This document shows positions 9,595 through 30,268 of a DNA stretch of 64,000 nucleotides, piece after piece. The notes beneath the pieces were generated by a model. The model made no database searches, was not told the origin of the DNA, and worked only from the letters and a program-made list of their open reading frames with translations. A program made the translations under genes and the position numbers. This DNA comes from an uncultured Chromatiaceae bacterium (lineage in GTDB: Bacteria > Pseudomonadota > Gammaproteobacteria > Tenderiales > Tenderiaceae): contig CALZIO010000005.1 in assembly GCA_945787785.1 (NCBI GenBank), positions 26,921-90,920 on the forward strand, read 5' to 3'. Position 1 is the first letter of the stretch; each line of letters begins with the position of its first letter.

Positions 9595-9595
9595 C

Positions 9596-11294: not shown

Positions 11295-11303
11295 TGGGAT
11301 TCA

Positions 11304-12812: not shown

Positions 12813-14382
12813 CTAGGAGCCTGTCGGATTTACCCATCCGGGGCAACGAGCCAGAACGCTAGCTCAAGGTCTGCCCCAGAATTTGCCTCAAGAAAACATG
12901 AGATGCACTGGGATACAGTAATTTGTTCGGGATAGAGCTCCCCCTGTTCATCCATCAGCCTACCAATGTATGCATTCGCTTTAGATTCCAGGCCATACAG
13001 ACTAAATTCCATTCACCTTGTGTCGCTTCCAATCCGCGAAGGTGAAAGCGCCGAAAGCCCAACACTTCTTTGATAATACCGAACACGGTTTCCACTGTGG
13101 ACTTGCGTTTGGCATAAATTGCCCGACCTTCAGTGGTGCGTAGCCGATATGCCATGGTGGTGACGGCATCGGTATCTTCCGGGCAGGGCGGTGCTGATGT
13201 TAACCGCTCCTCCAGTGGCCGGTTGTGACGTTCTCGGCTATCTGAAATGTACGGTGTCATATCGGCTCGCTCACACTGTTTGACGTTGTCTTCACTGTAA
13301 TAGCCGGCATCCGCTAACAACCCTTCGGGCTTACCCAGGGGGGCTTCAATTTCCTTTAACTGCGCTAAGGCGGGTTCAATTTGTTGTTTGTCGTTGGGCT
13401 GTTGTGTAATGTGGTTTTCGACGATTAGGTGGCTGTCGATATCGACCCCGGCCTGTGCGTTGTACGCCTGAATAAAGCCTTCTGAGGAAGGCATGATGCG
13501 CGACTCTTCGTCAGTGAAGTTAACCTGGTCTTTGTCCTGTGGCCCTTCTTTAGGCGGTTTGGGCACGCGGCCTCGATTCTTTTTCCCCGTCTCGGCCTCT
13601 TTGGCCGCGCGTTGCTTGAGTTTTTCTTCATACTCGGCCTGTTCGGCCTCAAACCGTTCGCGGGCGCGCCGCTCAATCTCGGCTTTGGCCTTCTCTATCT
13701 CGGCCAGCCGTGTTTCCCGGCGAGCCAGTTCATCGGGAATATCGATCTCTGGCTCATCTTCGGCATCGGCTTGCTCGGCTCGCTTAAGCAGTGTCTGGAC
13801 TTCTTGCTTAAGTTGTTCGTCCAGTTTATTGGCATATCCCCAACTTATCGCTTTATGTTTGCTTGCATTGGCTTTGATCTTGGTTCCATCCAGGCTCACT
13901 TTGCCCAGCTTAAGTACGCCCATGACTTTGGCCATGATCAGGATCTGAACAAATAGCCCTTCGAGCTCTTTGAGAAATCGCTTGCGGAAGGTGGCGATGG
14001 TGTCGTGGTCGGGGTGGCTATCGGCGGTGATAAAACGAAAGGCCACTGAATCATGAGTGGCCTGTTCGAGTTTGCGGCTGGAGAACACGCCTGTGGCGTA
14101 GCCGTAGAAAAGCAAGGAGACGAGTAATGCCGGATGGTAGGGCTGTTTCCCGCCACCGCCGTAACATTTTTCCAGCGTACTCAGATCCAACTGCTCCACA
14201 ATGTCGACGATGAAGCGGGCCAGGTGTTTTTCGGGAAGCCAATCTTGAATCGATGGTGGGAATAGATAGGTGCTATTTCGATTGATCGTCTGAAATTTAC
14301 CTGACATAGCAGTGCTCAATCCATTCTTTGGTAAGAGTCCCTATTTTACTGGATTTGACAGCTAAATCCGACAGACTCCTAG
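12813..14382 (-). mobile_element. IS1182-family insertion sequence (about 1570 bp)
   Basis: 19-bp terminal inverted repeats CTAGGAGCCTGTCGGATTT (12813-12831) and reverse complement CTAGGAGTCTGTCGGATTT (14364-14382), 18/19 identical. They enclose a single transposase ORF. Confidence 0.85.
12955..14307 (-). CDS. IS1182-family (IS5-like DDE) transposase
   Basis: N-terminal block YLFPPSIQDWLPEKHLARFIVDIV...GGGGKQPYHPALLVSLLFYGYATGVFSSRKLE, a central Lys/Glu-rich coiled coil, then a DDE region (SLDGTKIKANAS...LADAGYYS...). ATG at 14307 preferred over the TTG at 14319. Confidence 0.9.
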   Translation of the reverse strand: MSGKFQTINRNSTYLFPPSIQDWLPEKHLARFIVDIVEQLDLSTLEKCYGGGGKQPYHPALLVSLLFYGYATGVFSSRKLEQATHDSVAFRFITADSHPDHDTIATFRKRFLKELEGLFVQILIMAKVMGVLKLGKVSLDGTKIKANASKHKAISWGYANKLDEQLKQEVQTLLKRAEQADAEDEPEIDIPDELARRETRLAEIEKAKAEIERRARERFEAEQAEYEEKLKQRAAKEAETGKKNRGRVPKPPKEGPQDKDQVNFTDEESRIMPSSEGFIQAYNAQAGVDIDSHLIVENHITQQPNDKQQIEPALAQLKEIEAPLGKPEGLLADAGYYSEDNVKQCERADMTPYISDSRERHNRPLEERLTSAPPCPEDTDAVTTMAYRLRTTEGRAIYAKRKSTVETVFGIIKEVLGFRRFHLRGLEATQGEWNLVCMAWNLKRMHTLVG

Positions 14383-14713: not shown

Positions 14714-15805
14714 ATGCAAAAGAAATTAATTGCTCTGGCTGTTGCGGGTGTGCTTGCAGCACCTCTGGCGGCACAAGCGGCGGACGCAGAAGTTTATGGG
14801 AAGATGCGTCTTTCTGTGGGTTGGGTCGGAAATGACGACAGTAATGCAAACCGCGAAGACAGCAAGATGAGCCTGCAAAGCCATGCTTCACGCTTGGGGG
14901 TTAGGGGTTCTGAAGAAATTGGTGGTGGTACTAAGTTTACTTACCAGTTGGAAACCGCTATCAACATCGATGAGGCTGATTCTACCACCGGCCTGTGGGG
15001 TAGTATGCGTAACACTTATGTGGGTATCGGTGGTGAAACCTGGGGTGAAACCCGCTTTGGTCGTCATGACACTCCCTATAAAATCGCTACTGCCAAGCTG
15101 GACGTGTTTTCTGATACCCACGCTGATTATAATGCCATTATCGATCGCGGTAACGATCTGCGTTCTGACAATGTGCTTGCCTACTTGTCGCCAAACTGGA
15201 GCGGTTTTATGTTTGCGGCAGCGTATATCACCGATGCTGTAGATGACAGTCTGGTTGATACGACAGATTCTACTGCGATTGGTGGTACTACTCGTGAGCA
15301 GCCTGCGCTGAGTGGTGCTCTTATGTATGACAATGGTGCATTATTTGTCAGTCTTGCGTACCAGAGCATCCAGGAATCAGGCACCGCGGTTGGTACTAGC
15401 TACGAAGATACCGAAGCAACCAAATTTGGTATTGGTTATAACTGGGGTTCAGGCTCAGTAGGTTTGGTCTATGAAGGTGTTGACGCAGGTGGTCCAAGTG
15501 CCGACCAAAATAACACCTACATCGGTCTGGATCAGGGGTTTGGTTCAGGTAGTTCGGTACAGGTTGCGTGGGGTATGAAGGATGATGTGGGAAGCAGTGC
15601 CGATACCGGTGCCCAATATTTCGCCATTGGCCTCAAACAAGAGTTCAGCGAGACTGTTGAAACTTACATCTTGTACACTCAGCTAGACAGCGATAAGAAT
15701 GCTACCTACAATCTTGACTATGTTGGTGCTGCAGGTCCTGTTGGCGGAGAGCCTAGCGCAAATGCCTTCGCGCTTGGTGTTAACATGAAGTTCTCTTCAC
15801 TGTAA
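14714..15805 (+). CDS. General porin (Gram-negative trimeric porin family)
   Basis: Signal peptide ending AQAADAEVYGKMRLS. Alternating Gly/aromatic beta-strand pattern along 363 aa. AGGGAGA RBS. Confidence 0.85.
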   Translation: MQKKLIALAVAGVLAAPLAAQAADAEVYGKMRLSVGWVGNDDSNANREDSKMSLQSHASRLGVRGSEEIGGGTKFTYQLETAINIDEADSTTGLWGSMRNTYVGIGGETWGETRFGRHDTPYKIATAKLDVFSDTHADYNAIIDRGNDLRSDNVLAYLSPNWSGFMFAAAYITDAVDDSLVDTTDSTAIGGTTREQPALSGALMYDNGALFVSLAYQSIQESGTAVGTSYEDTEATKFGIGYNWGSGSVGLVYEGVDAGGPSADQNNTYIGLDQGFGSGSSVQVAWGMKDDVGSSADTGAQYFAIGLKQEFSETVETYILYTQLDSDKNATYNLDYVGAAGPVGGEPSANAFALGVNMKFSSL

Positions 15806-15987: not shown

Positions 15988-16803
15988 ATGATCAGGAACA
16001 GGGTTTGCCTGCTGGGGAGCATGCTGCTATTTATGGTGGCTGGTGCCGAGGCAGGTATTTTCAATACAAAACATAATCTGGGCAGTACCGGTCTCAATGC
16101 GGCCAGTACCTTCAGTGGTACGCGTGAGATTTGTGTCTTCTGTCATACTCCTCATGGTGGCAATGGTGAGGCCGCGGCTCCGATCTGGAACCGCAATCTC
16201 GATCCTAACGGATTTGCCACCTATGATCAGATGGGGACTACAACCCTGGATGCTGCCATAGAGCCTGTTGGTTCAGTTTCTCTCGCCTGTCTCTCTTGTC
16301 ATGACGGTACTCAAGCCATGGATGCGGTCCTGAATGAGCCGGGTTCTGGCCGTGATGTACCGGGTTTTTCGACTGGCTTATGGATTGGGCAAGCGGCGCC
16401 GGTGGAGGGCCGGATTGCACAACCTTTTGTAGCATCAAATCTGGGCAAAGACTTAACCAATGACCACCCGATAGGGGTGCAATATGCCGGGGGTGGTTAT
16501 TCATTAACTGCGCCTGCAGGGCCTGGATATGATACAGATTTTCATCCTGCTGCGTCTGAAATCACGGGTACAAGTCGCGTCTGGTGGGTGAATACGTTTG
16601 CCCCAGGCGGTACGGGTGCCTTTGAGCGTACCGATATGAAGCTCTATACCCGTGTTGGTAACCGCGGCGGGGCCTATGTAGGCGAAGAGCAGCCGTATGT
16701 CGAGTGTGCGTCATGTCATGATCCTCATGTAGATGATAAGCCCACCTTTCTTCGTATCGATCCTGTAGGCAGCCAGGTCTGTCTGACATGTCATAACAAA
16801 TAA
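15988..16803 (+). CDS. Tetrahaem c-type cytochrome (paired-CXXCH type)
   Basis: Signal peptide. 4 CXXCH motifs (CVFCHTPH, CLSCHDG, CASCHDPH, CLTCHNK). Conserved KHNL, PIWNR and DLTNDHPI blocks. Confidence 0.9.
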   Translation: MIRNRVCLLGSMLLFMVAGAEAGIFNTKHNLGSTGLNAASTFSGTREICVFCHTPHGGNGEAAAPIWNRNLDPNGFATYDQMGTTTLDAAIEPVGSVSLACLSCHDGTQAMDAVLNEPGSGRDVPGFSTGLWIGQAAPVEGRIAQPFVASNLGKDLTNDHPIGVQYAGGGYSLTAPAGPGYDTDFHPAASEITGTSRVWWVNTFAPGGTGAFERTDMKLYTRVGNRGGAYVGEEQPYVECASCHDPHVDDKPTFLRIDPVGSQVCLTCHNK

Positions 16804-16818
16804 TATTGGAATAGACTA

Positions 16819-17826
16819 ATGGGCCGGAGTAGGTTAAGGCTGTGGGGATTGTTGTTTTGCTTAATGCTCACGCTGGCCTTCTCTTGTGCCAGGGCTGATC
16901 AGTCTGACGAGCCTTATGCTCGTGTCAACGATAAAGTGCTCACCAAGGCGGAGCTCGAAACCGCTATCTATTTAGCGGTGCGTCAGCGTGTTTACCATGG
17001 CCGCATGGATGACAAGCGCCTTGAGTCTCTGCGTATCCAGGTTTTGGGTGAGTTGATCGATAGGATGCTGTTGCTTGATGAGGCCAGGCGCCGAGATATA
17101 AAAGTCGATTCAGGACAGCAAAAGCAGCTCTATCTGGAGTTGCAGCGCAGGTATGATGTGAAGTCGATGCCGGATGATCATCGTCAGCAGGTTGAGGCAG
17201 AGATGCGGAAGCGGGCTGAGGAGCAGGTCTTATTGCTCAAGATTGAATCCGATGTAAAATCAGTTGCGCAACCAGAAGATGATAAATTAAGGCTGTTTTA
17301 TAAAGAGAATCTTGATAAGTTTACAACACCGCCAAGATTGCGTTTATCGGTGATCTTATTGAAAGTTGCACCGTCGGCCCCTGTTAAGGCATGGCAGGCG
17401 GCTGAAGCTGAAGCAAAGCAGTTGCATAAAAAAATAGAGGCAGGTGCGAGTTTCGCTGATTTGGCCAGGTTGCACTCTGGGGATGCCTCGGCTGACAATG
17501 GTGGGGATTTGGGGTTTGTGCATCAGGGGATGTTGTCTCCAGAGGCGCAGCAGGCGGTTGAGAGTTTAGCAGTTGGGGAGCTGTCCGCGCCTACGATTTT
17601 ACTGCAGGGCGTGGCGTTATTTCGAATTGAGGGACGTCAAGAGGCAAAGGTTAATCCTTTTGAGCATGTCAGGGAGCGTGCTGCGGGATTGTGGCGGCGT
17701 GAACAGGCTGACAAGGCCTGGGAGGGTTTGTTGCGGTCATTACGCGCTAAGGCAATTATTGAAATCTACGATAATACTATGACAGCGGCAAAAATTTGGG
17801 CGCAAAAAGAAGATGTTGTCCAGTAA
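16819..17826 (+). CDS. Periplasmic peptidyl-prolyl cis-trans isomerase (SurA-N-like plus PpiC/parvulin domain)
   Basis: Signal peptide. Parvulin signature GGDLGFVHQGMLSPEAQQAV...GELSAPTILLQGVALFRI. Helical N-terminal chaperone-like region. Confidence 0.85.
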   Translation: MGRSRLRLWGLLFCLMLTLAFSCARADQSDEPYARVNDKVLTKAELETAIYLAVRQRVYHGRMDDKRLESLRIQVLGELIDRMLLLDEARRRDIKVDSGQQKQLYLELQRRYDVKSMPDDHRQQVEAEMRKRAEEQVLLLKIESDVKSVAQPEDDKLRLFYKENLDKFTTPPRLRLSVILLKVAPSAPVKAWQAAEAEAKQLHKKIEAGASFADLARLHSGDASADNGGDLGFVHQGMLSPEAQQAVESLAVGELSAPTILLQGVALFRIEGRQEAKVNPFEHVRERAAGLWRREQADKAWEGLLRSLRAKAIIEIYDNTMTAAKIWAQKEDVVQ

Positions 17827-17838
17827 AAATAATAATGT

Positions 17839-19689
17839 ATGCGGAGTAGCTGGGCATTGCGGAATGTAATTCGATTTAGGCCCTTTGCGCTACCAGTCTT
17901 ACTGACTTTTGTTCTTCTCTTTTTAGGGGTGAGCCAAGTTGCTTTTGCTCGTTTTATGGGGCCGGTCGATGCTTCAGGCCATCTTGGTTATTATTACCGA
18001 GCTTTAAATGAAGATGGCGGCCCTGATAACAGCAGCCACCAATTGGGCGGCACGGTTAATATGTCCACCTTTTTTGGCGAACCTTGGTTGTCGACAGCCT
18101 ATCTGTCATTGAGCTTGACTCAAGATTCCTCCGAAACGGTGCAAGCTAACGCTGAGTCGAGTACCGATTCACAGCTGCTCACAGGCGATTTTGGTTTGAA
18201 TGTGTTACCTTCGAGCCGCACGCCTTTCTCGTTGCTTTTGCAGGCGACGGACACTCGGGTGGATTCCAAAGGTTCGGGATTTATCCCCATCACCTTTGTC
18301 GGGCAGGAGTACTCTACTCTGTATCTCGGATTGCGGCAGTCATTTTTGACCCAGAAGGGTACGCAATACCGCCTCAATTATGATTATCGTACCTGGGAGT
18401 CGGGAAATGATGGGGAGTACGATGATAATTTGCTGGGTTTCGAGGCTGATTTGCGCAGGCCAAAACAGCGCCTATTCGGGCGGGGTTCAGTTCAGACAAA
18501 CGAGCACTCACTTTCGCAGCGAAACAATGAAAGTTTGTTGCTTGATATGACACACTACTATTTCCCGGTGCGTAATTTCCGCCTGGATAGCAAAGCGAGT
18601 TACTACGAATATGATCGATCCTTTGTGGATCCGAGTGCAACAGATACCCGGCTTTCGACTTTGAATATTGCCCAGGTGTCGAGCAATGCCTTTTGGCGTC
18701 CTTCGAATCACCCATTGAGTTTGACTGCGGGTGCCCGTGTTTATAATACTGAGGGTAACGAAGGTAGCGTTCCCGGTACTGAGATAACCAATGTTGCCCT
18801 TAATTCAGGGCTCTTTTATCAGATGAGTCGGAATCTACGGCTGGATGCCAGCTTAAATTCGCTGTTTGGTGATAATAATGGTGTGCAAGATGATATTCAT
18901 CAACAGGCGGCTGGTTTTGTTTATCAAACGGATTTGAAAGAAGCTCTGAAGCTTGTTTATCAGGCTTATGTAGATGGTGATCTGCGGCATCGCGTGGATG
19001 TGGCCGATGATATTATGGATTGGTCTCTGATTGGGGGGCATGGCCTAAGTCGAACCTGGTGGCCGGGAGAGCGAACATCTACAATGTCCTTCCGTTTACA
19101 TCTGAGCCAAGCGTTGGCTTGGTATGGTGCGGCAGGTGATGTCTTGAGCTCCAGGTCAGGGTTAAGGTTTGATAATTCCTTTACGCTCAGCTTTAATCAG
19201 CGAGACAAGGGGGGCGATACGCTAGCGCAAATAACGATGTCTGATTCTCGCGATGTGGCCTCAGAAGATATTTCTAATGTAGCTACAGACCGGGATACGG
19301 AACAGCAATTAATCAATCTGCAGTTAAACCGAAATCAGGAATTGGGGCGTAGAAGCTCGATCACGGGTAATATTACGGTGCAATATGTACGTTTGCAGGA
19401 GGAGAATACGTCGACCGGGCTTGTAAATGTCGACGAAAGTGATACAACAACGGCTACAGGTAGAATATTGTTTCAGCATTTTCAAATGCTTGGCATCCCA
19501 AGGTTGCATTTTTCGTCAGATTTTATCGTATCCAATATATCTACACCGGGGGCGATAGATCGAACCGATTGGGAGAACCGGCTCACGTATTTAATAGGAA
19601 AATTGGAAACAACTTTAAGTTATCGTTTGACTGAGACTGACAGTCGCAATTATGATTTGCTATACTTCCGCCTCATGCGCCGCTTTTGA
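17839..19689 (+). CDS. Predicted large outer-membrane beta-barrel protein (no haem motif)
   Basis: 616 aa. Signal peptide (VLLFLGVSQVAFA). Ser/Thr/Asn/Tyr-rich alternating pattern throughout. C-terminal YFRLMRRF ends in Phe (OMP signature). No CXXCH. Confidence 0.7.
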   Translation: MRSSWALRNVIRFRPFALPVLLTFVLLFLGVSQVAFARFMGPVDASGHLGYYYRALNEDGGPDNSSHQLGGTVNMSTFFGEPWLSTAYLSLSLTQDSSETVQANAESSTDSQLLTGDFGLNVLPSSRTPFSLLLQATDTRVDSKGSGFIPITFVGQEYSTLYLGLRQSFLTQKGTQYRLNYDYRTWESGNDGEYDDNLLGFEADLRRPKQRLFGRGSVQTNEHSLSQRNNESLLLDMTHYYFPVRNFRLDSKASYYEYDRSFVDPSATDTRLSTLNIAQVSSNAFWRPSNHPLSLTAGARVYNTEGNEGSVPGTEITNVALNSGLFYQMSRNLRLDASLNSLFGDNNGVQDDIHQQAAGFVYQTDLKEALKLVYQAYVDGDLRHRVDVADDIMDWSLIGGHGLSRTWWPGERTSTMSFRLHLSQALAWYGAAGDVLSSRSGLRFDNSFTLSFNQRDKGGDTLAQITMSDSRDVASEDISNVATDRDTEQQLINLQLNRNQELGRRSSITGNITVQYVRLQEENTSTGLVNVDESDTTTATGRILFQHFQMLGIPRLHFSSDFIVSNISTPGAIDRTDWENRLTYLIGKLETTLSYRLTETDSRNYDLLYFRLMRRF

Positions 19690-19759
19690 TGCGTGAGTTT
19701 TGGGTTATAACAATAAAATTTAAGATTTTTTTCATACTAGTTTGAGGAGAACTTTCGCA

Positions 19760-20185
19760 ATGTCACGTGTGACCAAGCATAGTAAGTGGAGGTATGTTCT
19801 ACTCGGGGCAATAACGTGGCTAGCCGCGTTTAGTTTGCCTCAGTCAGCACATGCAGAGTATGCAGATGTTGTTATTAACAACTACGCCGATGCGGCCGGT
19901 ATCCGTCCTGTGGTATTTCCACACTGGTTTCACCGTATTCGTTTTCGTTGCAAGGTTTGCCACGCTGACCTTGGCTTCCAGTTCAAAGCTGGCGGTAACA
20001 AGATAACAATGGCTAAGATTATCGATGGTAAGTTCTGTGGCGCTTGCCACAACGGTGAAATCGCTTGGTCAGTTGAAAACTGTGCAATGTGTCACTCAGG
20101 TATTCCTGGCACACCGACCCATTTTCATGGTAGTACGGTTCAGCGCCTCGTTGCGCCTGCGTACAAGCCTGTTGAACAACAATAG
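19760..20185 (+). CDS. Trihaem c7-type periplasmic cytochrome
   Basis: Signal peptide ending SAHA. VVFPHWFH...CKVCH...CGACHNG...CAMCHSG (3 CXXCH, PpcA-like spacing). GAGGAGA RBS before the ATG at 19760. Confidence 0.88.
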   Translation: MSRVTKHSKWRYVLLGAITWLAAFSLPQSAHAEYADVVINNYADAAGIRPVVFPHWFHRIRFRCKVCHADLGFQFKAGGNKITMAKIIDGKFCGACHNGEIAWSVENCAMCHSGIPGTPTHFHGSTVQRLVAPAYKPVEQQ

Positions 20186-20193
20186 GGGTGGCC

Positions 20194-20934
20194 ATGATGA
20201 AAATACGTAGCAAGAGTTTATTTCTCGGTTTCGCCTTATCACTGGCAATTTCAGGTCCAGCTTGTTCTCAAGGTTATGTTGAAATCCATTCGGGTGGAGT
20301 TGAAGACATGCCTCTGGACTATGCGCCAGAATATCAGCCTGTTGATGAAGTCGCTCTCCCAGATCAAGAGCCTATTCGAGTGGCTCAGGTGTCAGGTGCG
20401 AATATATTCAACCGTAATCTGAAAAAAGATAAGATGAAGAATGCGCCACCTCCGGAAGATGGTATTCATGATACCGATAACGAAGGTACTTTCGTTCTTC
20501 AGCCACCATTGGAAGCCTACGAAGGTTTGCCTCCGAGTGATTTCGGTAACTACATCGACTGGGTTAAAGCAATTGATGAGAAGAAACTGAATCCTCGCTG
20601 GGATCGTATTGATTCAAGTGAAGAGCCCTTCGTTATGGATATGGATATCGTGCGTGAGGTAAAGGCCTCTGTGCCTGATGTAGTGTTCCCTCACCGTCAG
20701 CATACAGAGTGGTTAGCATGTTCAAATTGCCATCCAGCGATCTTCATTCCTCAAAAGGGTGCTAACCAAATAAATATGTCAGCAATCCTGTTGGGCCAAA
20801 AATGCGGTGTTTGCCACGGCAAGGTGTCTTTCCCAATTACAACTAAGTCTTGTAAGAAGTGTCACTCTAAGCCTAAGCCTGCTGATTGGCAGCCGCCTTT
20901 GAGTGAGGCTACTCTAAAGAATCCTTGGAGATAA
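20194..20934 (+). CDS. Trihaem c7-type cytochrome with N-terminal extension (probable lipoprotein)
   Basis: LAISGPAC lipobox-like signal. VVFPHRQHTEWLACSNCHP...CGVCHGKVSFP...CKKCHS (3 CXXCH). Confidence 0.88.
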   Translation: MMKIRSKSLFLGFALSLAISGPACSQGYVEIHSGGVEDMPLDYAPEYQPVDEVALPDQEPIRVAQVSGANIFNRNLKKDKMKNAPPPEDGIHDTDNEGTFVLQPPLEAYEGLPPSDFGNYIDWVKAIDEKKLNPRWDRIDSSEEPFVMDMDIVREVKASVPDVVFPHRQHTEWLACSNCHPAIFIPQKGANQINMSAILLGQKCGVCHGKVSFPITTKSCKKCHSKPKPADWQPPLSEATLKNPWR

Positions 20935-21088
20935 CCGTTATCTCTATCTGATTCTGTCTCACTAGTTATTGGTATGAGATGGCCGCCGCATGGCGGCCTT
21001 CTTACACTAGGTGGTTGAGATGTCGGGCTGGCCGATGATACGGAATGTGCCAGCGGTAAGTTGAAATGATTTACTGTCGAGGGTGACG

Positions 21089-22579
21089 ATGATGAAACCA
21101 AGATTTACAGTTCTGACAATTGCGATTGCCGCAATTTTATCGGGTTGTGGTTCTACCACAACTGAAAAGAAAGCTGATGTAACTTCGCTTGAAACAAGCG
21201 GTGAGCCAGTTGCTGTTGAAACAGAGGTAAAAAAGGCTGTGGTCGTTGCGCCTGAGCCCGCCCCAAAAGCGGCGCCAGTTGAGACTGCTCCTGTTGCGCC
21301 AGTTGTTGCTGCTCCGGCAGTGGCTGCCGCGCCGAAACGTGACCTGAAGATTCCAACTGATCCCAACACTTTTTTGGTTACTGCCTCACCCAAAACACAT
21401 GCGCACCCTTCGCATGGGCAGGGTTTGGAAACCGGCTTTGATGTCAATGGACAGCCTGGCAAAGAGGTTGTTGTAACGCGCGGTGGTGCATATAAATTTG
21501 TCGTTGATACAGGTGTGCAACACGATTTCTATTTGACAACGAATCCTGCTGGCTGGGGTGCGGGTACATACACAGATGGTGTCGAAGGCCAGTTTATCTA
21601 TCAGGGTGAGGTAACTTTCAACCCATCTAAACAGACCCCAGACCTGCTCTATTACCAGTGCCGCAATCATAAGTATATGGGCGGAAAAATCTATGTGCTG
21701 GATGAAGGCGAAGATTTGGCTAAAGTCAAAGCTGCGTTGGTTGGTACCACCGGGGCCGCAGCAGCTAAGCGCGGTTCTACCACCGTCGTTACCGAAGCTG
21801 CCGTGAAGCAGAAGTTGAGTTATGCCCAAATGGTACTTGGTTCAGGCAGTGCAAAACGTGTCGAGGCGAGTGGCAATCAGCAAGCAATTAGTACGCTGAA
21901 TAACGCCCGGGGCCAAATTGGCGCGGCCAAAGTATCTCTTGATGGTGGCCAGCTACAGCTAGCGATGGATCAGGTGAATGACGGGCTGCGTTTGATGACT
22001 GCGGCATCTCGTGAAATTACCACAGAATCTGAAATGGCTGGCGTTAACCATAAGGCGAAATATGATGAGTTGAGTAATTCACTCAAAACATATGAGGGCT
22101 CCTATAAGCGTAATTCGGAGCGTGCTGCCAAAATGAATCAGCCAATGAAGGCAAGCCTGGATGAGGCTGAGTACAATCGCTTGGTCAATGAAGGTCATGC
22201 CTTGGCCGACAAAGGCGATTACGCTGCAGCAAATAAGTCGCTTAAAAAAGCGCAGGGGATGATAACTGCTGTTCTGACAAATATGCTTCATGCTCAAACG
22301 GTGACATATGATAAAAGCTTCGAAACTCCGCAGGAGGAGTATGAGTATGAATTGGCGCGTTTAGAGAACTACGAGGAGCTTGTTCCTATCGCGATCGAGC
22401 AGAAACAGCCATCGCAACGCGCATTAGAGTTGATTGATGGATTCGTACAGAAAGCAGCTAAGATTAAGGATGAAGGCAAAGAAGTTGCAGCCAAGGGTGA
22501 TTATAAAATGGGAATTATGGCCATGCAGGCGGCAACTTCAAATCTGCAGCGTGCATTACGCATGGCTGGGGTGAACTAG
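21089..22579 (+). CDS. Lipoprotein with Ala/Pro-rich linker, cupredoxin-like (type-1 Cu motif) domain and long helical C-terminal domain
   Basis: Lipobox AILSGC. The beta-rich segment KEVVVTRGGAYKFVVDTGVQHDF...LLYYQCRNHKYMGGKIYV gives an H...C-x2-H-x2-M ligand pattern, as in amicyanin-type blue copper proteins. About 270 aa of Ala/Lys/Gln-rich predicted helices follow. Confidence 0.7.
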   Translation: MMKPRFTVLTIAIAAILSGCGSTTTEKKADVTSLETSGEPVAVETEVKKAVVVAPEPAPKAAPVETAPVAPVVAAPAVAAAPKRDLKIPTDPNTFLVTASPKTHAHPSHGQGLETGFDVNGQPGKEVVVTRGGAYKFVVDTGVQHDFYLTTNPAGWGAGTYTDGVEGQFIYQGEVTFNPSKQTPDLLYYQCRNHKYMGGKIYVLDEGEDLAKVKAALVGTTGAAAAKRGSTTVVTEAAVKQKLSYAQMVLGSGSAKRVEASGNQQAISTLNNARGQIGAAKVSLDGGQLQLAMDQVNDGLRLMTAASREITTESEMAGVNHKAKYDELSNSLKTYEGSYKRNSERAAKMNQPMKASLDEAEYNRLVNEGHALADKGDYAAANKSLKKAQGMITAVLTNMLHAQTVTYDKSFETPQEEYEYELARLENYEELVPIAIEQKQPSQRALELIDGFVQKAAKIKDEGKEVAAKGDYKMGIMAMQAATSNLQRALRMAGVN

Positions 22580-22679
22580 TGATATTGGCGTAATGTCAAA
22601 GTTTGTGTATAGTTCGTAGGCTGCCATCAATAGTGATAGCAGCCGGATTTTTGGGAAGCAGTTAATTAGATTTGGTATT

Positions 22680-23276
22680 ATGTTGCGTTTCAAACGTCAC
22701 AAGTTGTTTGCCTTTGTTTTAATAAGCTTTTTATTAGGCCTGTTGTCGCCACGGGTAGCCTTTGTACAAGAACAGTTTGAGGGTGATTTTTGGAATAGTG
22801 GTGAGCATTATCAGCTGGATAGTAAGGTTGTTCCAGTCGATGAAGATGGCATACATGATCCGGACAATGATGCTGTAAAAGTTCTTCAAGAGCCTATTGA
22901 GGCGATGGAGACCTTTCCTCGTGATAATTCAGGTGTTATTGATTGGGTAAAAGTCTTGGATCAAGGCTTAATTGCCCCTCGTAAAGGCCTGTATGGCGAT
23001 GAAGAAATGCATGCTGTGGATTTTGATGTGATATTCAAAAACACGGGTTCAATGCCATATGTGCGTTATCCTCATCGTCAGCACACCGAGTGGTTGACCT
23101 GCAAAAACTGTCATCCCAAGATTTTCCTGCCACAAAAGGGTGGTAATCCTGTGACGATGTCGGGGATTATGCAGGGCAAGTATTGTGGTATCTGCCATGG
23201 TAAAGTTGCTTTTCCTCCAACTAAGAATTGTGGACGATGCCATTCTGTACCGAGAGACAAAGTCGGCTTAAGATAA
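22680..23276 (+). CDS. Trihaem c7-type cytochrome (paralogue of 20194-20934)
   Basis: Signal peptide. YPHRQHTEWLTCKNCHP...CGICHGKVAFP...CGRCHS. Shares the DGIHD.DN...IDWVK extension with the 248-aa paralogue. Confidence 0.88.
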   Translation: MLRFKRHKLFAFVLISFLLGLLSPRVAFVQEQFEGDFWNSGEHYQLDSKVVPVDEDGIHDPDNDAVKVLQEPIEAMETFPRDNSGVIDWVKVLDQGLIAPRKGLYGDEEMHAVDFDVIFKNTGSMPYVRYPHRQHTEWLTCKNCHPKIFLPQKGGNPVTMSGIMQGKYCGICHGKVAFPPTKNCGRCHSVPRDKVGLR

Positions 23277-24571
23277 TAGCTTGTCTGTTTGGGGTGATGC
23301 AGCTGATAGGTTGCGCCACAACTGAGCAGACGTCTACGCCAAGCGTGGCTGATGATAAGGCAGCTGCAGAGCTGGCTGAGCTGTTTGATGATTTTTCCGA
23401 CGAATCAGAAACTCCAGTCACTGAAACGCAAGCTGTTTCTGAGCCCGTAGAAACTCCACCAAAAGACGTCATAGAAGAAGCTGTCGATGAATCGATAGAT
23501 CCATTGGATCAAATTGCTGCGACAGCTCCTGAGCCTGTACTTCCCAAGCCCCATGCCGTAGCCACTATCCAGATCTATGATTGGAATGTGATTGATGGCG
23601 CGCCTATTGGTAATGCCTTTACCGCCGCGGTTCAAAACCGCTTTATACGCCCAGTAGCCATTGCGGTTCAGGGTGAATATCTCTACGTAGTAGATGAGGG
23701 GTATGATGCACTGTATCGGTTAGATCTGTCCACGGAAGAGCTAGAGGTCATATTTGACCTTAAAAAGGTGGTAAAAGGCGAAGTTGCCGATATTTATGTC
23801 GATAAGGATTTTTCATTTTACTTGACCGATACCGAGGCGGGTCGGGTCCTGCATTTTGATCAAAATGGACGTTTGATTCAGGAGTTTCGTAATCATTTTA
23901 ATTTGGTCAAGCCGGTTGCAGTAACGGTGTTTGAGAGTGGTGACTTGGTTGTCGCCGATGGTCATTACGACCACCTCTTACACTTCAATAGCGAGGGTAA
24001 GCTGATTGCAACTTACGGTGCTCGAGGCGATGCCGTGGCTGAATTTCTCAATATATTGACCATGGCAAAAGGCCCGGACGGGTTTTATGTCGGTGGCCGG
24101 GTTGGTCGTCGTATTCAGGTTCTCGGTTCAGATGGGAATTACCTCTATGCATTTGAAGAGGGTACGGTCGTTTTTCCGGCATCCATTGTCGTTGATGGCA
24201 ATAATCGCAGCTATGTTGCAGATTATATGGACAACACCATCAAGGTATTTGATCGCGGCGGCCCAATTGGTGTCATCGGTGGCCACGGTACTGAGCCTGG
24301 GAAATTTAAGCGCGTTACTGATCTTTGGCTGGTTGGAAACGTCTTATACATCGCCGACAGCCTCAATGGCAGAATCCAGGCGGCCAAGTTGTCGCCAGAT
24401 CCGGTGCCGCTTCCTAGTCCAGTATTCGAATCAGATGCTGAGCTATTTCAGGAAACAGTAGAAGAGTCTGCCGAAGCGGATGTGAAATCTGTAGACGGTA
24501 TGGCGGAAGACATTGTTGAAGGTGCGGACGAAAAAGCTCAACCCGCAAAATCATCAGATTCTATCCAATGA
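23237..24571 (+). CDS. NHL-repeat six-bladed beta-propeller lipoprotein with acidic N- and C-terminal tails
   Basis: Lipobox MQLIGC. Six NHL-type repeats (YLYVVDEGYDALYRLD, FYLTDTEAGRVLHFD, LVVADGHYDHLLHFN, FYVGGRVGRRIQVL, SYVADYMDNTIKVFD, LYIADSLNGRIQAA). Start assigned to the ATG at 23237, 40 nt inside the previous gene. Confidence 0.85.
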   Translation: MPFCTERQSRLKIIACLFGVMQLIGCATTEQTSTPSVADDKAAAELAELFDDFSDESETPVTETQAVSEPVETPPKDVIEEAVDESIDPLDQIAATAPEPVLPKPHAVATIQIYDWNVIDGAPIGNAFTAAVQNRFIRPVAIAVQGEYLYVVDEGYDALYRLDLSTEELEVIFDLKKVVKGEVADIYVDKDFSFYLTDTEAGRVLHFDQNGRLIQEFRNHFNLVKPVAVTVFESGDLVVADGHYDHLLHFNSEGKLIATYGARGDAVAEFLNILTMAKGPDGFYVGGRVGRRIQVLGSDGNYLYAFEEGTVVFPASIVVDGNNRSYVADYMDNTIKVFDRGGPIGVIGGHGTEPGKFKRVTDLWLVGNVLYIADSLNGRIQAAKLSPDPVPLPSPVFESDAELFQETVEESAEADVKSVDGMAEDIVEGADEKAQPAKSSDSIQ

Positions 24572-25698
24572 TCGAACATAAGCGTTGTTTCACAGCGCTT
24601 GGCTGTGTCGTGTTTCTGTTAATTCTCACGGGCTGTGCTCAGCTCCCCGCAGTATTTGAATATAAACCATTTGATGAAGCCAAAGGCGATCTGGTGTGGC
24701 CAGAGCCGCCTGATATCGCTCGATATCGTTACGTTGGCCAATTAACCGGTGAGGAAAATTTCCCCCGCCCAGGTGAGGACGCGCTCAATGCCGGGGCGCG
24801 GTTGGTTCGCTGGATGGTCGGGCTGGTGGGGCATAGTGCGGATCCTGTGATTCTGCAACGCCCGCAGGCAGTGATCACTGATGGTCAAGGAAAAATTTTT
24901 GTCAGCGATGTTAGTCGCCAGGCTGTTTACATGTTTGACACGGTTCAAGCAGAGTTGAAAGTGTGGGAAAACGCAGTAGAAGGGATTCGCTTTGAACTAC
25001 CAATTGGATTAGCCGTTGGTCTGAATGGTGAGTTGCTGGTATCGGATGCCTCGTTGCAATTAGTTGCCCGGCTGGGGCCGGATGGTGAGCCAATCGGAGT
25101 GATTGGTTTAGATCAGCTACAGCATCCCACTGGATTGGCCAGAGACCCCCAGCTCGGACGAATCTATGTGGCAGATCGGGGTGCCAACAACATCAAGGTT
25201 TTTTCTGACGTGGGAGAATTTCAGTTTGAATTTGGCGAGTTTGGTGAGGAAGCTGGCCAGCTGAATGGGCCTACCTACTTGTTTTGGCACGAGAATTTAC
25301 TCTATGTGACGGATGCGCTTAATTCAAGAATACAGATTTTTTCACCTGATGGTGAATATCAGTCCCATTTTGGGCGGCGCGGACTTTACTTGGGGGATTT
25401 GCCCCGTCCTAAGGGGGTGGCAGTCGCTCAAGACGGTAAAGTCTATGTGGTAGAATCCTATTACGACTATTTGTTAATATTCAACCGCGAAGGTGAGTTA
25501 TTATTACCTATTGGCGGTACAGGCCATGAGGTGGGACAGTTTTATCTGCCTGCCGGGGTCTGGGTTGAGAATAACTATGTTTATGTTGCGGATACATTTA
25601 ACGGCCGCGTGATGATTTTTGAATATCTTGGAGATGGAGATGCGTCGGACGTTGCAGGTGATAGCAGCTCTGATATTGACGACGCTGCTGGCGGTTAA
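24568..25698 (+). CDS. NHL-repeat beta-propeller lipoprotein
   Basis: Lipobox LILTGC. NHL repeats (IFVSDVSRQAVYMFD, LLVSDASLQLVARL, IYVADRGANNIKVF, LYVTDALNSRIQIF, VYVVESYYDYLLIF, VYVADTFNGRVMIF). ATGA overlap with the upstream gene. Confidence 0.88.
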   Translation: MIEHKRCFTALGCVVFLLILTGCAQLPAVFEYKPFDEAKGDLVWPEPPDIARYRYVGQLTGEENFPRPGEDALNAGARLVRWMVGLVGHSADPVILQRPQAVITDGQGKIFVSDVSRQAVYMFDTVQAELKVWENAVEGIRFELPIGLAVGLNGELLVSDASLQLVARLGPDGEPIGVIGLDQLQHPTGLARDPQLGRIYVADRGANNIKVFSDVGEFQFEFGEFGEEAGQLNGPTYLFWHENLLYVTDALNSRIQIFSPDGEYQSHFGRRGLYLGDLPRPKGVAVAQDGKVYVVESYYDYLLIFNREGELLLPIGGTGHEVGQFYLPAGVWVENNYVYVADTFNGRVMIFEYLGDGDASDVAGDSSSDIDDAAGG

Positions 25699-28378
25699 CG
25701 CCCAAGCAGCAGAAAGAGTATCGGATATCCGCAATACCAAACACAATTTCTCCGCCGTGGTAATACCTGCGTTGCCGGATGGTGCTGCGCGTACGGTCCA
25801 GGCAGTTTCAGAATCGCAAATCTGCGCTTTTTGCCACACGCCGCATAAAGCGAGTAAACAAGCTCGGGCGCCGATTTGGAATCGCAAATTATCAGGTGCT
25901 ACTTATACGCCTTATACCAGCTCCTCGATTGATGCTGTTAATCTTGGCCAACCCAATACCAAGTCCAAATTATGTCTTTCCTGCCATGACGGCACCCTGG
26001 CTATTGGAGCTGTTAATGTTCTCAATAGAGTTGAAAACCCAAACATCCCAATGCGGGGTACAGCACCTGATGGCACTATGCCTGCCGGTTTGGGCGATCG
26101 GTCTGGTTTTACCCGCCGCCTCGGCACGGACTTGACCAATGACCACCCGATTTCATTCACTTATGATTCAGCCCAGGCCAGCCGCGACGGAGAGTTGCGT
26201 GACCCTTCTCTGGATACAGTTATAGGCGAACGTGGGCCGGGAACGCATCGAGCAACACTACCTCTGGAAGATGGTCAGATGGAATGTGTCTCCTGCCATG
26301 ATCCACACATACGCAGTACTTCAGGTGAAAATATCAAGTTTCTGCGGGTTAACCGGTTTCAACAAACTACCCCAGTCGAAGGCACTTATAATCAGGCAAA
26401 CGATATTATTTGCTTGGCGTGTCACGAGAAATCCGGTTGGGCTGACTCGGCGCATGCCAATATGGCGGTGGGAGATGAAAGATACACCGATGCCGCGGCC
26501 GAGATTCGAGAATTTCCACAGAATATGCAAGTTTGGCAAGCAGCCTGTTTGAATTGCCATGACCCGCATACCGTTCAGGGCTCGCGTCGCCTGTTGCGTG
26601 AAGGTACTGATGATGCAGGTCAGGTTGTGAGTGCTGGTGGAAGTGCTATCCGCGTTAAGCAGGGCGGTGGTGCAGCGATAGAAGAGACTTGCTATGCATG
26701 CCATTCAGTTGATGGCAACGTCTTGCAGGGGCAGCCAAACAAGGGTGTGTTTCAAGTGCCTGATATTAAAACCGATTTCACCACCATGCGCATCCACATG
26801 CCGATCGCAAGTGAAGACCAGGCAGCTGGCGAAGAACGCCATGCTATCGGTACTTTCCCGGCGCCGCAAAACGGCAAGGACTTCATGGAGTCACAGCAGC
26901 GTCTCGGCAAGGGTGACCTGAGTAACCGCCATGCCGAGTGTACAGACTGTCATAATCCTCATCGTGTCATCAAGAATCGTAGCTTTAATGACGACCCCAA
27001 GTTCCCGGATATTGAAGGGACCCATAACCACACAACTTCACAGATTGCCGGTACGCTGGAAGGGCAGCATACCAATCTTGCCTCAGGGGTCCTGCGTGGA
27101 GCCTGGGGTGTTGAGCCAACCTCCTGGACCAGTACGGAGTTCACCAGCCGACCAGTCACCTTTGAGGTCAAGCGTGGTGACGCTATAGTCGGTGGCAATG
27201 CCGATGTCAGCGCGACTTATGTGACGCGTGAGTATCAGATTTGTATGAAATGCCATTCGAATTATGGTTTTGATGCACCAGCACCATTGGGCACCAATCA
27301 TTCTGGTGGTACGCCAGCCGGAACCAATGCACTCTTTAACTATACCAACCAAGGTATGGAATATCAGTCACCAGATGATCATAAAGGCGAAGTGACCCCT
27401 GCTACGCCTACTGGGGCATATGCTGGCAGTGTTGGTGAGTGTGCTGATGTTAATTTTGGCACCCTGGATTTAACCGATCCCGCTGCATTGCTTTACTACA
27501 ATACTTATGTAAAACGGGCTGGCTATGTTGATCCCAATGGAAACTGCGTTAATTATGTTACTGATAATCATCGTGCCTGGCACCCAATTTTGAAGGAGAC
27601 AGGTCGTACCGCTGTTCCTGGTGGTGGAGGTGTGCGCGATGCTGATTCCGATGACTGGCATGAGCCGTTCAACGCTGCGGTGGGTACACAGACGATGTAT
27701 TGTACTGATTGCCACGGTTCGGATACCGCTCAAGGCACAGTAGTGCCGCGCGGATTGCAGCCCAATGGTAATGTGTGGGGACCACATGGGTCAGAAAACG
27801 ACTTCCTGCTGAAAGGCAGTTGGAGTGATGAAACCGGTCAGAACACTGCTGCAGATGGTCTCTGTTTCAAGTGTCACAACTACAACTACTATGGCAGAAA
27901 ATATCCCGCCGGTGTGATTAACCCGAATTCGACCAAGGATAGTGGTTTTAGCCGAGATCCGGCTTTGGGAGTGGCATCATGCCTCTATGTGCCATCAGTA
28001 AATCTTCATACTGGACATGCTCAAGAAAGACAGGTGAGTAATTTCCGTTGTAGTTATTGCCATGTTTCGATCCCGCATGGTTGGAAGAACAAAAATTTCC
28101 TCAATAATCTGAACGATATCGGCCGTGAAGTAGGGTTGGCAACTGGTGGTAATCAGGTGCGTAATAATCAGACCAGCCGTTATTACCGTGGTCCTTATTA
28201 CAATGGCGCAGTGTTGAAAATTGTGCAATTCCGCCAGAGTGGCCAATGGGTGCATAACACCTGTGGTTCGGCTGGCAATCCCGGTAATGGCAATGTTGGT
28301 GGTAATGGTAACTTCGGAAACATACCCTGGATGACGGACCAGGGTTCAGGCAGTGAGGCCTGTAACCTAATCCCATGA
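25640..28378 (+). CDS. Undecahaem (11 CXXCH) large c-type cytochrome
   Basis: Signal peptide (LLAVNAQAAE). 11 canonical CXXCH motifs. The N-terminal roughly 270 aa repeat the architecture of the 271-aa tetrahaem protein. Asn/Gly-rich C-terminal tail. GGAGA RBS 5 nt before the ATG at 25640. Confidence 0.9.
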   Translation: MRRTLQVIAALILTTLLAVNAQAAERVSDIRNTKHNFSAVVIPALPDGAARTVQAVSESQICAFCHTPHKASKQARAPIWNRKLSGATYTPYTSSSIDAVNLGQPNTKSKLCLSCHDGTLAIGAVNVLNRVENPNIPMRGTAPDGTMPAGLGDRSGFTRRLGTDLTNDHPISFTYDSAQASRDGELRDPSLDTVIGERGPGTHRATLPLEDGQMECVSCHDPHIRSTSGENIKFLRVNRFQQTTPVEGTYNQANDIICLACHEKSGWADSAHANMAVGDERYTDAAAEIREFPQNMQVWQAACLNCHDPHTVQGSRRLLREGTDDAGQVVSAGGSAIRVKQGGGAAIEETCYACHSVDGNVLQGQPNKGVFQVPDIKTDFTTMRIHMPIASEDQAAGEERHAIGTFPAPQNGKDFMESQQRLGKGDLSNRHAECTDCHNPHRVIKNRSFNDDPKFPDIEGTHNHTTSQIAGTLEGQHTNLASGVLRGAWGVEPTSWTSTEFTSRPVTFEVKRGDAIVGGNADVSATYVTREYQICMKCHSNYGFDAPAPLGTNHSGGTPAGTNALFNYTNQGMEYQSPDDHKGEVTPATPTGAYAGSVGECADVNFGTLDLTDPAALLYYNTYVKRAGYVDPNGNCVNYVTDNHRAWHPILKETGRTAVPGGGGVRDADSDDWHEPFNAAVGTQTMYCTDCHGSDTAQGTVVPRGLQPNGNVWGPHGSENDFLLKGSWSDETGQNTAADGLCFKCHNYNYYGRKYPAGVINPNSTKDSGFSRDPALGVASCLYVPSVNLHTGHAQERQVSNFRCSYCHVSIPHGWKNKNFLNNLNDIGREVGLATGGNQVRNNQTSRYYRGPYYNGAVLKIVQFRQSGQWVHNTCGSAGNPGNGNVGGNGNFGNIPWMTDQGSGSEACNLIP

Positions 28379-29397
28379 TGCGCTGGTTACGCAGGTTAGC
28401 CTCAACACGGCTAACCTTGCTTGGCATGGCGCTGTTAGCTGTCGGCGCCAGCCTCAGTTATGGCAATCCCGCCGAAGTTTCTGCTTGGGTGTTGATTGCC
28501 CCGCTGCTGTTTCTCGCGCTTAATTTACTTGCTGCAATTATTACCCAGCCAGGCATCAATCGGCGCCCGGGTTTGTTGTTGTTTCATTTGGGACTGCTGT
28601 CTATTTGCGTTCTCACTGCCATTGGCCAGTTGACCTATTTCGAATCCCGCGTCGAAGTGACGCAAGACAGCGTCTTTGAATTGTCAGCAATGCAAGAGGT
28701 GCAGCAGGGCCCGTGGCATCTTGGTGAACTGGGCAAGGTTCAGTTTGTCCAACAGGGTTACACCGTAGAATACCGGCCAGGATTGGTGCGTGGGGCGACA
28801 CGAAGCCATATATTGCTACCTGACGGCAAAGGTGGTTGGAAAGCTGAGGTGGTCGGGGATGATACGCCGCTGATTATCGATGGCTATCGTTTCTATACCA
28901 CCTTTAACAAGGGGTTTGCGGCGGTTCTGACATGGATTACAGAACAGGGTGAGGCAATGACAGGTACGATACACATGCCTTCCTATCCGCTGTTTGATTA
29001 CAAGCAGGCGAATAGTTGGTTGCCGCCAGGTAGCGAGGAAGAAATCAAGTTCTGGCTGCGTCTCGAAACCGATTTTGACCGTGAGGCAGATTGGCTCTTG
29101 GATGGTGCCAAAACACACGCCGTGTTAGTCGTTAATGACGGCGACCAGCGGGTTGAATTGCAGCCGGGCCAAGGCATCGATTTGCCAGGTGGTCATTTAC
29201 GTTATGAGGCATTGAGCACCTGGATGGGTTACAAGATTTTTTATGACCCGACACTGAAATGGCTGTTTATAGCAGCGATGATCACGGTGTTTGGTTTGTG
29301 TCTGCATTACTGGAGTAAATTTCAGGACCAGCCCATGGACCAGCCAGAAGATCAATCACCAGAGCAGTTAGCGGGCAAGGCGCAGGATAGAAAGTGA
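28375..29397 (+). CDS. ccsB: System II cytochrome c biogenesis protein ResB/CcsB (short form)
   Basis: N-terminus LRRLASTRLTLLGMALLAVGAS, TM His (LLLFHLGLL), large soluble loop, final TM with His (LCLHYW). Lies immediately upstream of ccsA. Start overlaps the cytochrome stop (ATGATG). Confidence 0.75.
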   Translation: MMRWLRRLASTRLTLLGMALLAVGASLSYGNPAEVSAWVLIAPLLFLALNLLAAIITQPGINRRPGLLLFHLGLLSICVLTAIGQLTYFESRVEVTQDSVFELSAMQEVQQGPWHLGELGKVQFVQQGYTVEYRPGLVRGATRSHILLPDGKGGWKAEVVGDDTPLIIDGYRFYTTFNKGFAAVLTWITEQGEAMTGTIHMPSYPLFDYKQANSWLPPGSEEEIKFWLRLETDFDREADWLLDGAKTHAVLVVNDGDQRVELQPGQGIDLPGGHLRYEALSTWMGYKIFYDPTLKWLFIAAMITVFGLCLHYWSKFQDQPMDQPEDQSPEQLAGKAQDRK

Positions 29398-29416
29398 ATC
29401 AGGTGGAAACAAATAG

Positions 29417-30265
29417 ATGACAAGCACAGTTACAGAACTTCCCTGGATGTGGGCCGGTCTTTTCTCCTATGCTCTGGCGACGATAATCGCCTTTCGCACT
29501 GTCTGGCAGCTTGGCGGTGTCGGCTCTATTGCATTGCCAAGCCGCAATACTGAACGCTGGATATTATTGTTTATTGTTAGTGGTGTTGTGTTGTTGACCA
29601 TTGCTCTTGGTGTGCGTTGGGATCGACTCGGTCACGGCCCTTTCGTCAATCTCTATGAGCTGCTGATGAGTCAGCTGTTTAGTCTTGGTTTGATTTATGC
29701 CATCGTCTATTGGCGCGTGCCAAGCCTTCGTTCAAGTGCTGTGGTGGTGTTACCACTGATCTGGATTTTAGGCACCTGGATCCTGTTTCTCGAGCCGGTC
29801 GATAGTCGCTTTCCACCTACATACCATAACAACTGGCTTTGGGCTCATGTTGGGTTCGGCAAGGTCTTTCTTTCGTTCTGTCTGGTGGCAGCAGGGTTGG
29901 CGGGTGTCATTTTGTTGCGAGCCATTCCGCGTTTTGGCCGTTCATTTTCCAATATGAGCGACGCAGCGCTTGATCAGCTTGCCTGGCGTTTCATGATGCT
30001 GGCACTGGTGTTTGATAGCCTGATGCTGATTGCAGGCGCGGTCTGGGCGCAGGATGCCTGGGGGCGTTATTGGTCCTGGGACGCACTGGAAACCTCTTCT
30101 TTCATCACCTGGCTTTCTATCGGTGCAGGTATTCATGCCCGCTTGAGTTTCAAAATTCCTATCCGGATGGGGGCTCTGGTGATTCTGGCGATTTTTGGCC
30201 TTGCGTTCACCACCTATTTTGGCGCGCCGTATTACAGCGAAGCCGCGCACAAGGGAGTTATTTGA
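29417..30265 (+). CDS. ccsA: System II cytochrome c assembly protein CcsA (haem lyase/exporter subunit)
   Basis: Trp-rich WWD motif VWAQDAWGRYWSWDALETSSFITWL. Multiple TM helices. 282 aa. Confidence 0.88.
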   Translation: MTSTVTELPWMWAGLFSYALATIIAFRTVWQLGGVGSIALPSRNTERWILLFIVSGVVLLTIALGVRWDRLGHGPFVNLYELLMSQLFSLGLIYAIVYWRVPSLRSSAVVVLPLIWILGTWILFLEPVDSRFPPTYHNNWLWAHVGFGKVFLSFCLVAAGLAGVILLRAIPRFGRSFSNMSDAALDQLAWRFMMLALVFDSLMLIAGAVWAQDAWGRYWSWDALETSSFITWLSIGAGIHARLSFKIPIRMGALVILAIFGLAFTTYFGAPYYSEAAHKGVI

Positions 30266-30268
30266 TCC

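Follow-up and report, generated by a model that had tools for sequence, protein, structure and literature searches.

What is the protein encoded between two trihaem cytochrome genes of an undecahaem electron transfer (uet) cluster, and could it carry electrons of its own? The question is raised by a gene at positions 21089-22579 on the + strand of a 64,000-nucleotide stretch of contig CALZIO010000005.1 from an uncultured Chromatiaceae bacterium of the order Tenderiales (hereafter the window). The Uet cluster is among the few candidate routes for electrons from solid donors, such as cathodes and Fe(II) minerals, in oxygen-respiring autotrophs, and we know of no biochemical study of its parts. 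An original prediction, made from the letters alone, had read the gene product as a lipid-anchored cupredoxin between c7-type trihaem cytochromes, followed by a long helical domain; its lipobox and the neighbouring genes uetE and uetG bear out this placement. The analysis reported here points to an ortholog of UetF with a putative blue copper site in a confidently modelled cupredoxin domain. What is new is that the helical tail is an independent, widely distributed module, often found in the UetF slot without the copper domain.

UetF itself is not a new discovery, as it was already named in 2022: the uet cluster was described in Candidatus Tenderia electrophaga, order Tenderiales, with gene 6 given as 'Cupredoxin UetF' (bioRxiv 10.1101/2022.05.06.490989). 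Eddie et al., whose uet gene names are used here, said of UetF no more than that a cupredoxin domain is predicted in it and that its size well exceeds the usual (bioRxiv 10.1101/2022.05.06.490989). In a 2017 metatranscriptome paper the UetF of this organism (Tel_16525; ALP54627.1) had been annotated as a TPR protein; it was apparently co-transcribed with three trihaem genes that were among the most highly expressed, and its peptide abundance shifted with electrode potential (PMC5371394). The TPR annotation was rejected here, TPR_8 scoring 11.4-13.8 bits against a cutoff of 25.7. The presence of uet genes has been reported in Gallionella too (PMC10734462), and Leptothrix cholodnii is reportedly an outlier with a uet-like cluster. 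Beyond the published UetF, the ligand set, the lipoprotein-tether anatomy, the independence of the helical domain, the cupredoxin-free variants of the slot and the stand-alone Gallionella cupredoxins were worked out in this analysis.

Like Tel_16525, the window gene stands between the trihaem genes uetE and uetG, and the order of uetA-J, the ccs genes and the TPR gene is identical to that of the Ca. Tenderia cluster, with bat genes nearby. A scan of one genome per species showed 79 loci, which belonged to Gallionellaceae and to metagenome-assembled genomes (MAGs) of Chromatiaceae, Tenderia and Gammaproteobacteria; by tblastn with the window proteins, the order UetA-B-C-D-E-F-G-H-I-J-ResB-CcsA-TPR was kept in about 60 of them. 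The best public match to the window protein was 82% identical, and full-length identity to the UetF-slot proteins of three Ca. Tenderia sp. MAGs (L008, L010 and L012) was 58-63%. Because the gene order uetA-J is conserved and the protein is homologous to these Tenderiales slot proteins, the window gene is assigned as a UetF ortholog and the locus as the published uet cluster.

The open reading frame (ORF) runs from 21083 (GTG) or 21089 (ATG) to 22579 in the ORF listing. A GAGGG Shine-Dalgarno sequence lies 6-7 nt 5' of the ATG, and the N-termini of homologues read MMKP or MKxK. On these two grounds the start was placed at 21089, as originally proposed, giving a protein of 496 aa. The residue numbers first given for the copper motif (His147, Cys193, His196 and Met199) denote the correct residues; they were counted from the GTG and so exceed by two the ATG-based numbers used below (145, 191, 194 and 197). 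A scan of 19600-23400 for promoters and terminators gave nothing above shuffled expectation.

The predicted UetF is a lipoprotein in which the lipobox (LSGC) is followed by a disordered tether of 68 aa, then by a beta domain and finally by 260 aa of purely helical structure. The signal peptide, encoded by 21089..21148, ends in the lipobox L17-S18-G19-C20 within the motif A-I-L-S-G-C, which had been recognised in the original prediction together with the Ala/Pro/Val-rich tether. Cys20 is at least 90% conserved, the residue at +2 is Gly here, and no homologue has Asp at this position. By the Lol +2 rule the lack of Asp predicts sorting to the outer membrane, and the lipid anchor of UetF is probably in the inner leaflet of that membrane. 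The Ala/Val/Pro/Glu/Lys-rich tether (residues 21-88; 21149..21352; A15, V12, P9, T7, E7, K7) was predicted to be disordered, with an AlphaFold2 (AF2) pLDDT below 50 over residues 1-76, and it differs in length and sequence across the aligned homologues. An interdomain linker (residues 208-235; 21710..21793), also variable in the alignment, consists in the model of one helix (210-228) and a low-confidence stretch (pLDDT below 50 at 226-231). The copper domain is thus flanked by low pLDDT on both sides, which was counted in favour of a mobile copper head. The only cysteines of UetF are Cys20 and Cys191, the mature protein being otherwise free of Cys.

The beta domain (residues 89-207; 21353..21709) is, by confident modelling, a cupredoxin. 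In the AF2 model built from a 36-sequence alignment, residues 94-204 had a pLDDT above 90, and modelling of the isolated domain gave eight beta strands with a pLDDT of 95.7 and a pTM of 0.88. A Foldseek search of the PDB with this domain returned rusticyanin as the top match (E 4.8e-5, TM 0.47-0.52), followed by domains of CueO, McoA, NirK and plastocyanin; the probability was 1.00 for rusticyanin, CueO, NirK and plastocyanin, and all 50 matches listed had the cupredoxin fold, copper enzymes nearly throughout. The fold check that accompanied the original prediction therefore came out in its favour, with a predicted eight-stranded cupredoxin sandwich. At the level of sequence families, the Pfam matches at E ≤ 10 were PF25489 (At5g54830-like domain; residues 117-205, 31.2 bits against a gathering cutoff of 27) and a sub-threshold TPR_8, and nothing else. 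A precomputed PF25489 match is present in most homologues. This family takes its name from a plant cytochrome b561/DOMON protein for which no copper function is stated; a literature search on PF25489 gave nothing informative. An NCBIfam scan of UetF gave zero matches, and phmmer and profile searches of the PDB gave chance matches and no significant copper protein. As the sequence libraries returned no significant copper protein, fold-level methods were needed.

The residues expected of a type-1 copper site are all present. The putative N-terminal ligand, His145 (codon 21521..21523), lies in an H-D-F-Y motif, and the putative Cys, His and Met ligands lie in the loop C191-R-N-H194-K-Y-M197 (21659..21679), whose Cys codon had correctly been placed at 21659. 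The alignment of 36 homologues, with identity down to 38%, showed that H145, C191, H194 and M197 are invariant, as are D146, F147, Y148, Y189, N193 and G198. The C..H..M residues are also kept in 56 of 56 further fused representatives and in stand-alone relatives of at least 38% identity. Profile alignment by hhalign placed the four residues in register with amicyanin ligands H53/C92/H95/M98 (P 2.9e-4) and plastocyanin ligands H37 and C84/H87/M92 (P 0.005), and the C-terminal three in register with rusticyanin C138/H143/M148 (P 0.04); the alignments landed on the known ligand positions of the reference sequences. The H...C-x2-H-x2-M pattern claimed at the outset is therefore present, and both its conservation and its register with known type-1 ligands agree with that claim. 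The comparison with amicyanin-like and pseudoazurin-like sites held for the first, C-x2-H-x2-M being the amicyanin spacing, and failed for the second, since pseudoazurin, like plastocyanin, has C-x2-H-x4-M. Taken together, these results indicate that UetF carries a type-1 (blue) copper ligand set on a loop of amicyanin length, from which we infer copper binding.

UetF thus resembles amicyanin in its His...Cys-x2-His-x2-Met pattern and blue copper proteins in its eight-stranded fold. It differs from amicyanin, plastocyanin and rusticyanin in having Asp, rather than Asn or Ser, after the first His, in holding Arg and Lys in the ligand loop, and in an extra invariant K-x3-H-P loop. Furthermore, these three proteins are free soluble carriers, whereas UetF is predicted to be lipid-tethered and is fused to a large helical domain. 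The extra loop, K102-x3-H106-P107, lies between strands 1 and 2 (His106 codon 21404..21406) and is invariant in the 36 sequences. His106, which is outside the classical four ligands, may by analogy with cupredoxin topology be near the copper-side end of the sandwich; its candidate roles are those of a fifth ligand, a second-sphere residue and a contributor to a docking patch. Two distant relatives that still have the four ligands carry Asp or Tyr in its place.

The remainder of the protein (residues 236-496 and the stop codon; 21794..22579) was modelled as ten helices arranged in hairpins with a pLDDT of about 90, and the helical region of about 270 residues that had been described after the beta domain is thereby upheld. 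Its description as uncharacterised also stands: no Pfam or NCBIfam model matches the domain, and a search for solved structures turned up nothing beyond chance matches and helical repeat proteins of designed origin. A profile search covering 1.84 billion representatives (clusters at 50% identity) found 1149 proteins at E ≤ 1e-3, 929 of them at E ≤ 1e-10. Among the best 144 new proteins, 56 have a cupredoxin and 88 do not, the cupredoxin-free forms being of two kinds, namely secreted proteins of about 280-320 aa and lipoproteins with a long Ala/Pro tether. As judged by these searches, the helical domain forms a family of its own that is widespread and unannotated. Two members have unusual layouts: P0312 (559 aa) has a cupredoxin and one and a half helical domains, and P0263 (505 aa) has three partial helical-domain repeats and no cupredoxin.

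The most conserved motif of the helical domain, at residues 404-441 (22298..22411), reads T-x2-Y407-x3-F411-x2-P-x2-E417-x2-Y-E421-x2-R424-x3-Y-x2-L431-x-P433...P441 and is kept alike in fused (168) and cupredoxin-free (80) members. The residues conserved in both sets are K242, R257, S261, Y407, P414, E417, E421, R424, L431, P433, P441 and G494; they include no His, Cys or Met, which makes a cofactor site in the domain unlikely. Weak repeated matches to YfdX, DUF5667, DUF4398 and TPR can be attributed to a hairpin pattern, A...L..G(D)...A...L..A, that occurs three times. YfdX (PF10938), a periplasmic helical family of unknown function, shares with UetF hairpins of the form A...L..G(D/N)...A...L..A. 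Weak YfdX matches were seen in 7 of 21 helical-family members (best E 1.6e-4), and the relative P0332 exceeded the YfdX gathering score (29.2 against 26.6). The helical domain of the window protein had no YfdX match at threshold, its hhalign comparison with E. coli YfdX was weak (P 0.027), and the UetF motif Y-x3-F..P..E..YE..R...L.P has no YfdX counterpart.

Each module also occurs without the other. A search with the cupredoxin-domain profile showed stand-alone, secreted proteins of about 150-190 aa (many of 167-169 aa), mostly in Gallionella and also in other MAGs, which share 46-57% identity with the domain in UetF and retain K-x3-H-P, H-D-F-Y and C-R-N-H-K-x-M-G-G. Their neighbourhoods, in L076, L090 and L091, consist of housekeeping genes and offer no informative partner; small blue copper proteins are often found in such surroundings. 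The magnetite-induced cupredoxins Slit_1816-1818 of Sideroxydans, by description multicopper-oxidase-type or much larger, were set aside and not used as evidence. The reverse case was examined through the gene context of nine cupredoxin-free members of the helical family. Five of the nine lie directly 3' of a UetE-like trihaem c7 cytochrome gene (L080, L083, L084, L085/86 and L087), and four lie elsewhere (L081, L082, L093/94 and L095/96). L080 and L085 hold whole uet-like clusters, in which genes for a PPIase, a barrel, two c7 cytochromes, the helical protein, a third c7 cytochrome, an NHL protein and a large multihaem cytochrome follow one another, with ResB, CcsA and TPR genes in addition in L085. 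The helical gene in both is overlapped by its flanking genes or abutted within about 10 nt, so that there is no room for a cupredoxin in the slot. One MAG has a split form: its slot protein, AB1513_02550, is helix-only, and a cupredoxin-only homologue, AB1513_03295, is encoded separately. From these arrangements, UetF is best described as a lineage-specific fusion in which the helical module is constant in the slot and the copper head optional.

Two tandem arrangements were also seen. In the cupredoxin-free clusters L080 (6001-7921) and L083 (111-1888), the helical slot protein is a tandem pair; the second copy has diverged far further, and the L-x-P portion of its motif is gone. In the Gallionellaceae MAG L057, full-length cupredoxin-helical paralogs lie in tandem (8406-9728 and 10010-11329) with no uet genes nearby; a TPR-methyltransferase gene follows them and a haem A synthase gene about 3.5 kb off, in a housekeeping context with no informative partner.

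The reading that we favour, and consider reasonably probable, is that UetF is a tethered type-1 copper relay docked at the Uet trihaem cytochromes or barrel, for which we infer copper binding, docking and electron direction. The helical domain would serve as a docking or scaffold module beside the co-transcribed, periplasmic trihaem proteins UetD, UetE and UetG or the UetC barrel complex, and the copper head would move on the tether of about 68 residues and the short flexible linker. Handling one electron at a time at a relatively high potential, this head could serve as a relay or branch point, with the outer-membrane haem conduit (UetA/UetJ in UetC) on one side and the carriers supplying the inner-membrane chain on the other. 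A blue copper centre would suit a donor near +0.3 V, and a parallel would be rusticyanin in acidophilic Fe(II) oxidation, which works among c-type cytochromes in an electron-uptake chain. The invariance of the ligands in every fused member argues for a selected metal site, and the fusion amid electron carriers, together with the split form in one genome, suggests that both modules work together.

Several results weigh against this reading. The model resembles known cupredoxin structures only moderately, with a TM of about 0.5 and an rmsd of about 6 A, and the copper-bind profile search, a check named with the original prediction, turned out negative, with no Copper-bind, Cupredoxin_1 or Cu_bind_like match in Pfam at E ≤ 10. 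The four ligands are lost in two remote relatives of the cupredoxin domain (P0187 and P0188), so a cupredoxin-like fold is possible without them. The beta domain might accordingly be a copper-free structural sandwich whose conserved residues serve folding or another ligand, a notion to which the name of PF25489, taken from a plant protein, would also lend itself. However, the four residues are invariant at amicyanin spacing and in register with three reference cupredoxins, Cys191 is the sole Cys of the mature protein, and the nearest structural neighbours are nearly all copper-binding, which together make a copper-free domain very unlikely. Even more improbable, in our judgement, is that UetF is a periplasmic metal handler resembling EfeO, with a cupredoxin and a helical metal-binding domain engaged in ferroxidase activity or iron capture and not in electron relay. 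E. coli EfeO (7wgu_B) was indeed the top Foldseek match of the full-length model (E 4e-5, 453 aligned columns), and in both periplasmic proteins the cupredoxin is N-terminal and the helical domain comes after it; the conserved helical motif of UetF is rich in Glu and Tyr, and relatives occur in iron oxidisers. The superposition is nevertheless poor (TM 0.14-0.19, rmsd 23.6 A), hhalign comparisons of both UetF domain profiles with E. coli EfeO were null, and no Peptidase_M75 match was found in 21 helical-family members at E ≤ 10. The helical domain, lacking a conserved His, has no HxxE-type motif, and no efeU- or efeB-like genes are among the neighbours, which encode cytochromes, a PPIase, a barrel candidate and NHL propellers. 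The low TM, high rmsd and null profile comparison indicate a shared architecture and not homology, and EfeO homology was rejected on these grounds and on the absence of M75 and of a conserved His.

A weightier objection comes from the gene contexts. No cupredoxin was found in the cluster stretches of L080 and L085 that were read, where the UetF slot holds a helix-only protein, implying that the copper centre is dispensable and not obligatory for such conduits. Moreover, some helix-only relatives are encoded among housekeeping genes, which shows that the helical domain is not tied to cytochromes, and Gallionellaceae have fused paralogs away from any uet cluster. UetF might on this account be mainly a non-redox structural or assembly factor, a helical scaffold, spacer or chaperone-like protein, with the copper head an accessory off the main path (a sensor, a sink or a device for copper handling). 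The helix-only proteins that follow UetE-like c7 genes in five of the nine sampled cases, with no cupredoxin in the parts of these clusters that were read, the conserved helical residues common to fused and free members with no His, Cys or Met among them, and the weak likeness to YfdX-type periplasmic helical proteins are all in line with such a role; a cytochrome-aligning function was proposed for Tel_16525 in 2017, when it was annotated as TPR (PMC5371394). It is at odds with the strict invariance of the copper ligands in all fused members, with the electron carriers on both sides of the fusion and with the split arrangement in one genome. We regard it as rather unlikely as an account of UetF as a whole, and a scaffold would be compatible with a copper relay in those lineages that have the copper domain. 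A broader conjecture, put forward tentatively as a possibility and somewhat doubtful in its full extent, is that the helical domain represents an undescribed periplasmic family (about 1100 clusters at 50% identity, with no Pfam model), one branch of which is the invariant non-haem partner of c7 trihaem cytochromes in Uet-type conduits. In Tenderiales this branch would have captured a free blue copper protein of the Gallionella type, yielding a lipid-tethered, swinging copper head and hence a haem-copper hybrid wire for high-potential donors such as cathodes and Fe(II) minerals.

UetF is the sole non-haem redox candidate of the Uet cluster. Its small cupredoxin domain with defined ligands lends itself readily to expression and to measurement of a potential, and that value would provide a fixed point for the energetics of the entire chain. 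Since the helical module is constant and the copper head optional, the priority as to which part of UetF to study should shift, and clusters with and without copper offer a natural comparison for the contribution of the copper centre.

The genes around uetF, all on the + strand unless stated otherwise, were assigned by Pfam and NCBIfam searches and by counts of CXXCH motifs, and the multihaem neighbourhood described in the original prediction was found as claimed. UetA (15988-16803) is a tetrahaem protein with 4 CXXCH; it is followed by UetB (16819-17826), a SurA-like PPIase, and UetC (17839-19689), a barrel candidate of 616 aa with no family match. UetD (19742-20185) and UetE (20188-20934) are c7-type trihaem proteins and UetG (22680-23276) a trihaem protein, with 3 CXXCH each. 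Downstream lie UetH/UetI, which are NHL propellers (23228-25698), and the undecahaem UetJ (25619-28378; 11 CXXCH), followed by ResB-like and CcsA-like cytochrome maturation genes and a TPR gene (28375-30958). UetE and UetG, and not UetD, have an N-terminal extension ahead of the trihaem domain, with the pattern D-G-I-H-D-x-D-N...L-Q-x-P-x-E-A...(I/V)-D-W-V-K-A, which also occurs in the UetG-like gene of L083; this extension could be a docking element. The N-termini of UetH and UetI are lipobox-like (LIGC and LTGC), so that lipid anchoring may extend beyond UetF to several other Uet proteins; in the published localisation, UetH was called cytoplasmic. The mechanically derived ORF of UetJ opens at a TTG overlapping uetI; judging by the signal peptide, the true start may be a few codons downstream (MEMRRTLQV...).

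Directly upstream of uetA lies a gene for a Porin_4-family porin (14714-15805, + strand), and most of the loci with this synteny, roughly 60 in number, have a homologue of 24-56% identity at the equivalent place. The porin gene, which is outside the named uetA-J, may belong to the conserved module as well. A DDE transposase gene (DDE_Tnp_1, DUF772; 12955-14319, - strand) lies immediately 5' of the porin gene and the uet block. On the other side, a PMT_2 (ArnT-like) glycosyltransferase gene on the - strand and a flavin amine-oxidase-like gene (31119-35246) separate the uet/ccs/TPR block from the bat operon, and BatD/BatB/BatA-MoxR and the Ccm system are encoded further downstream.

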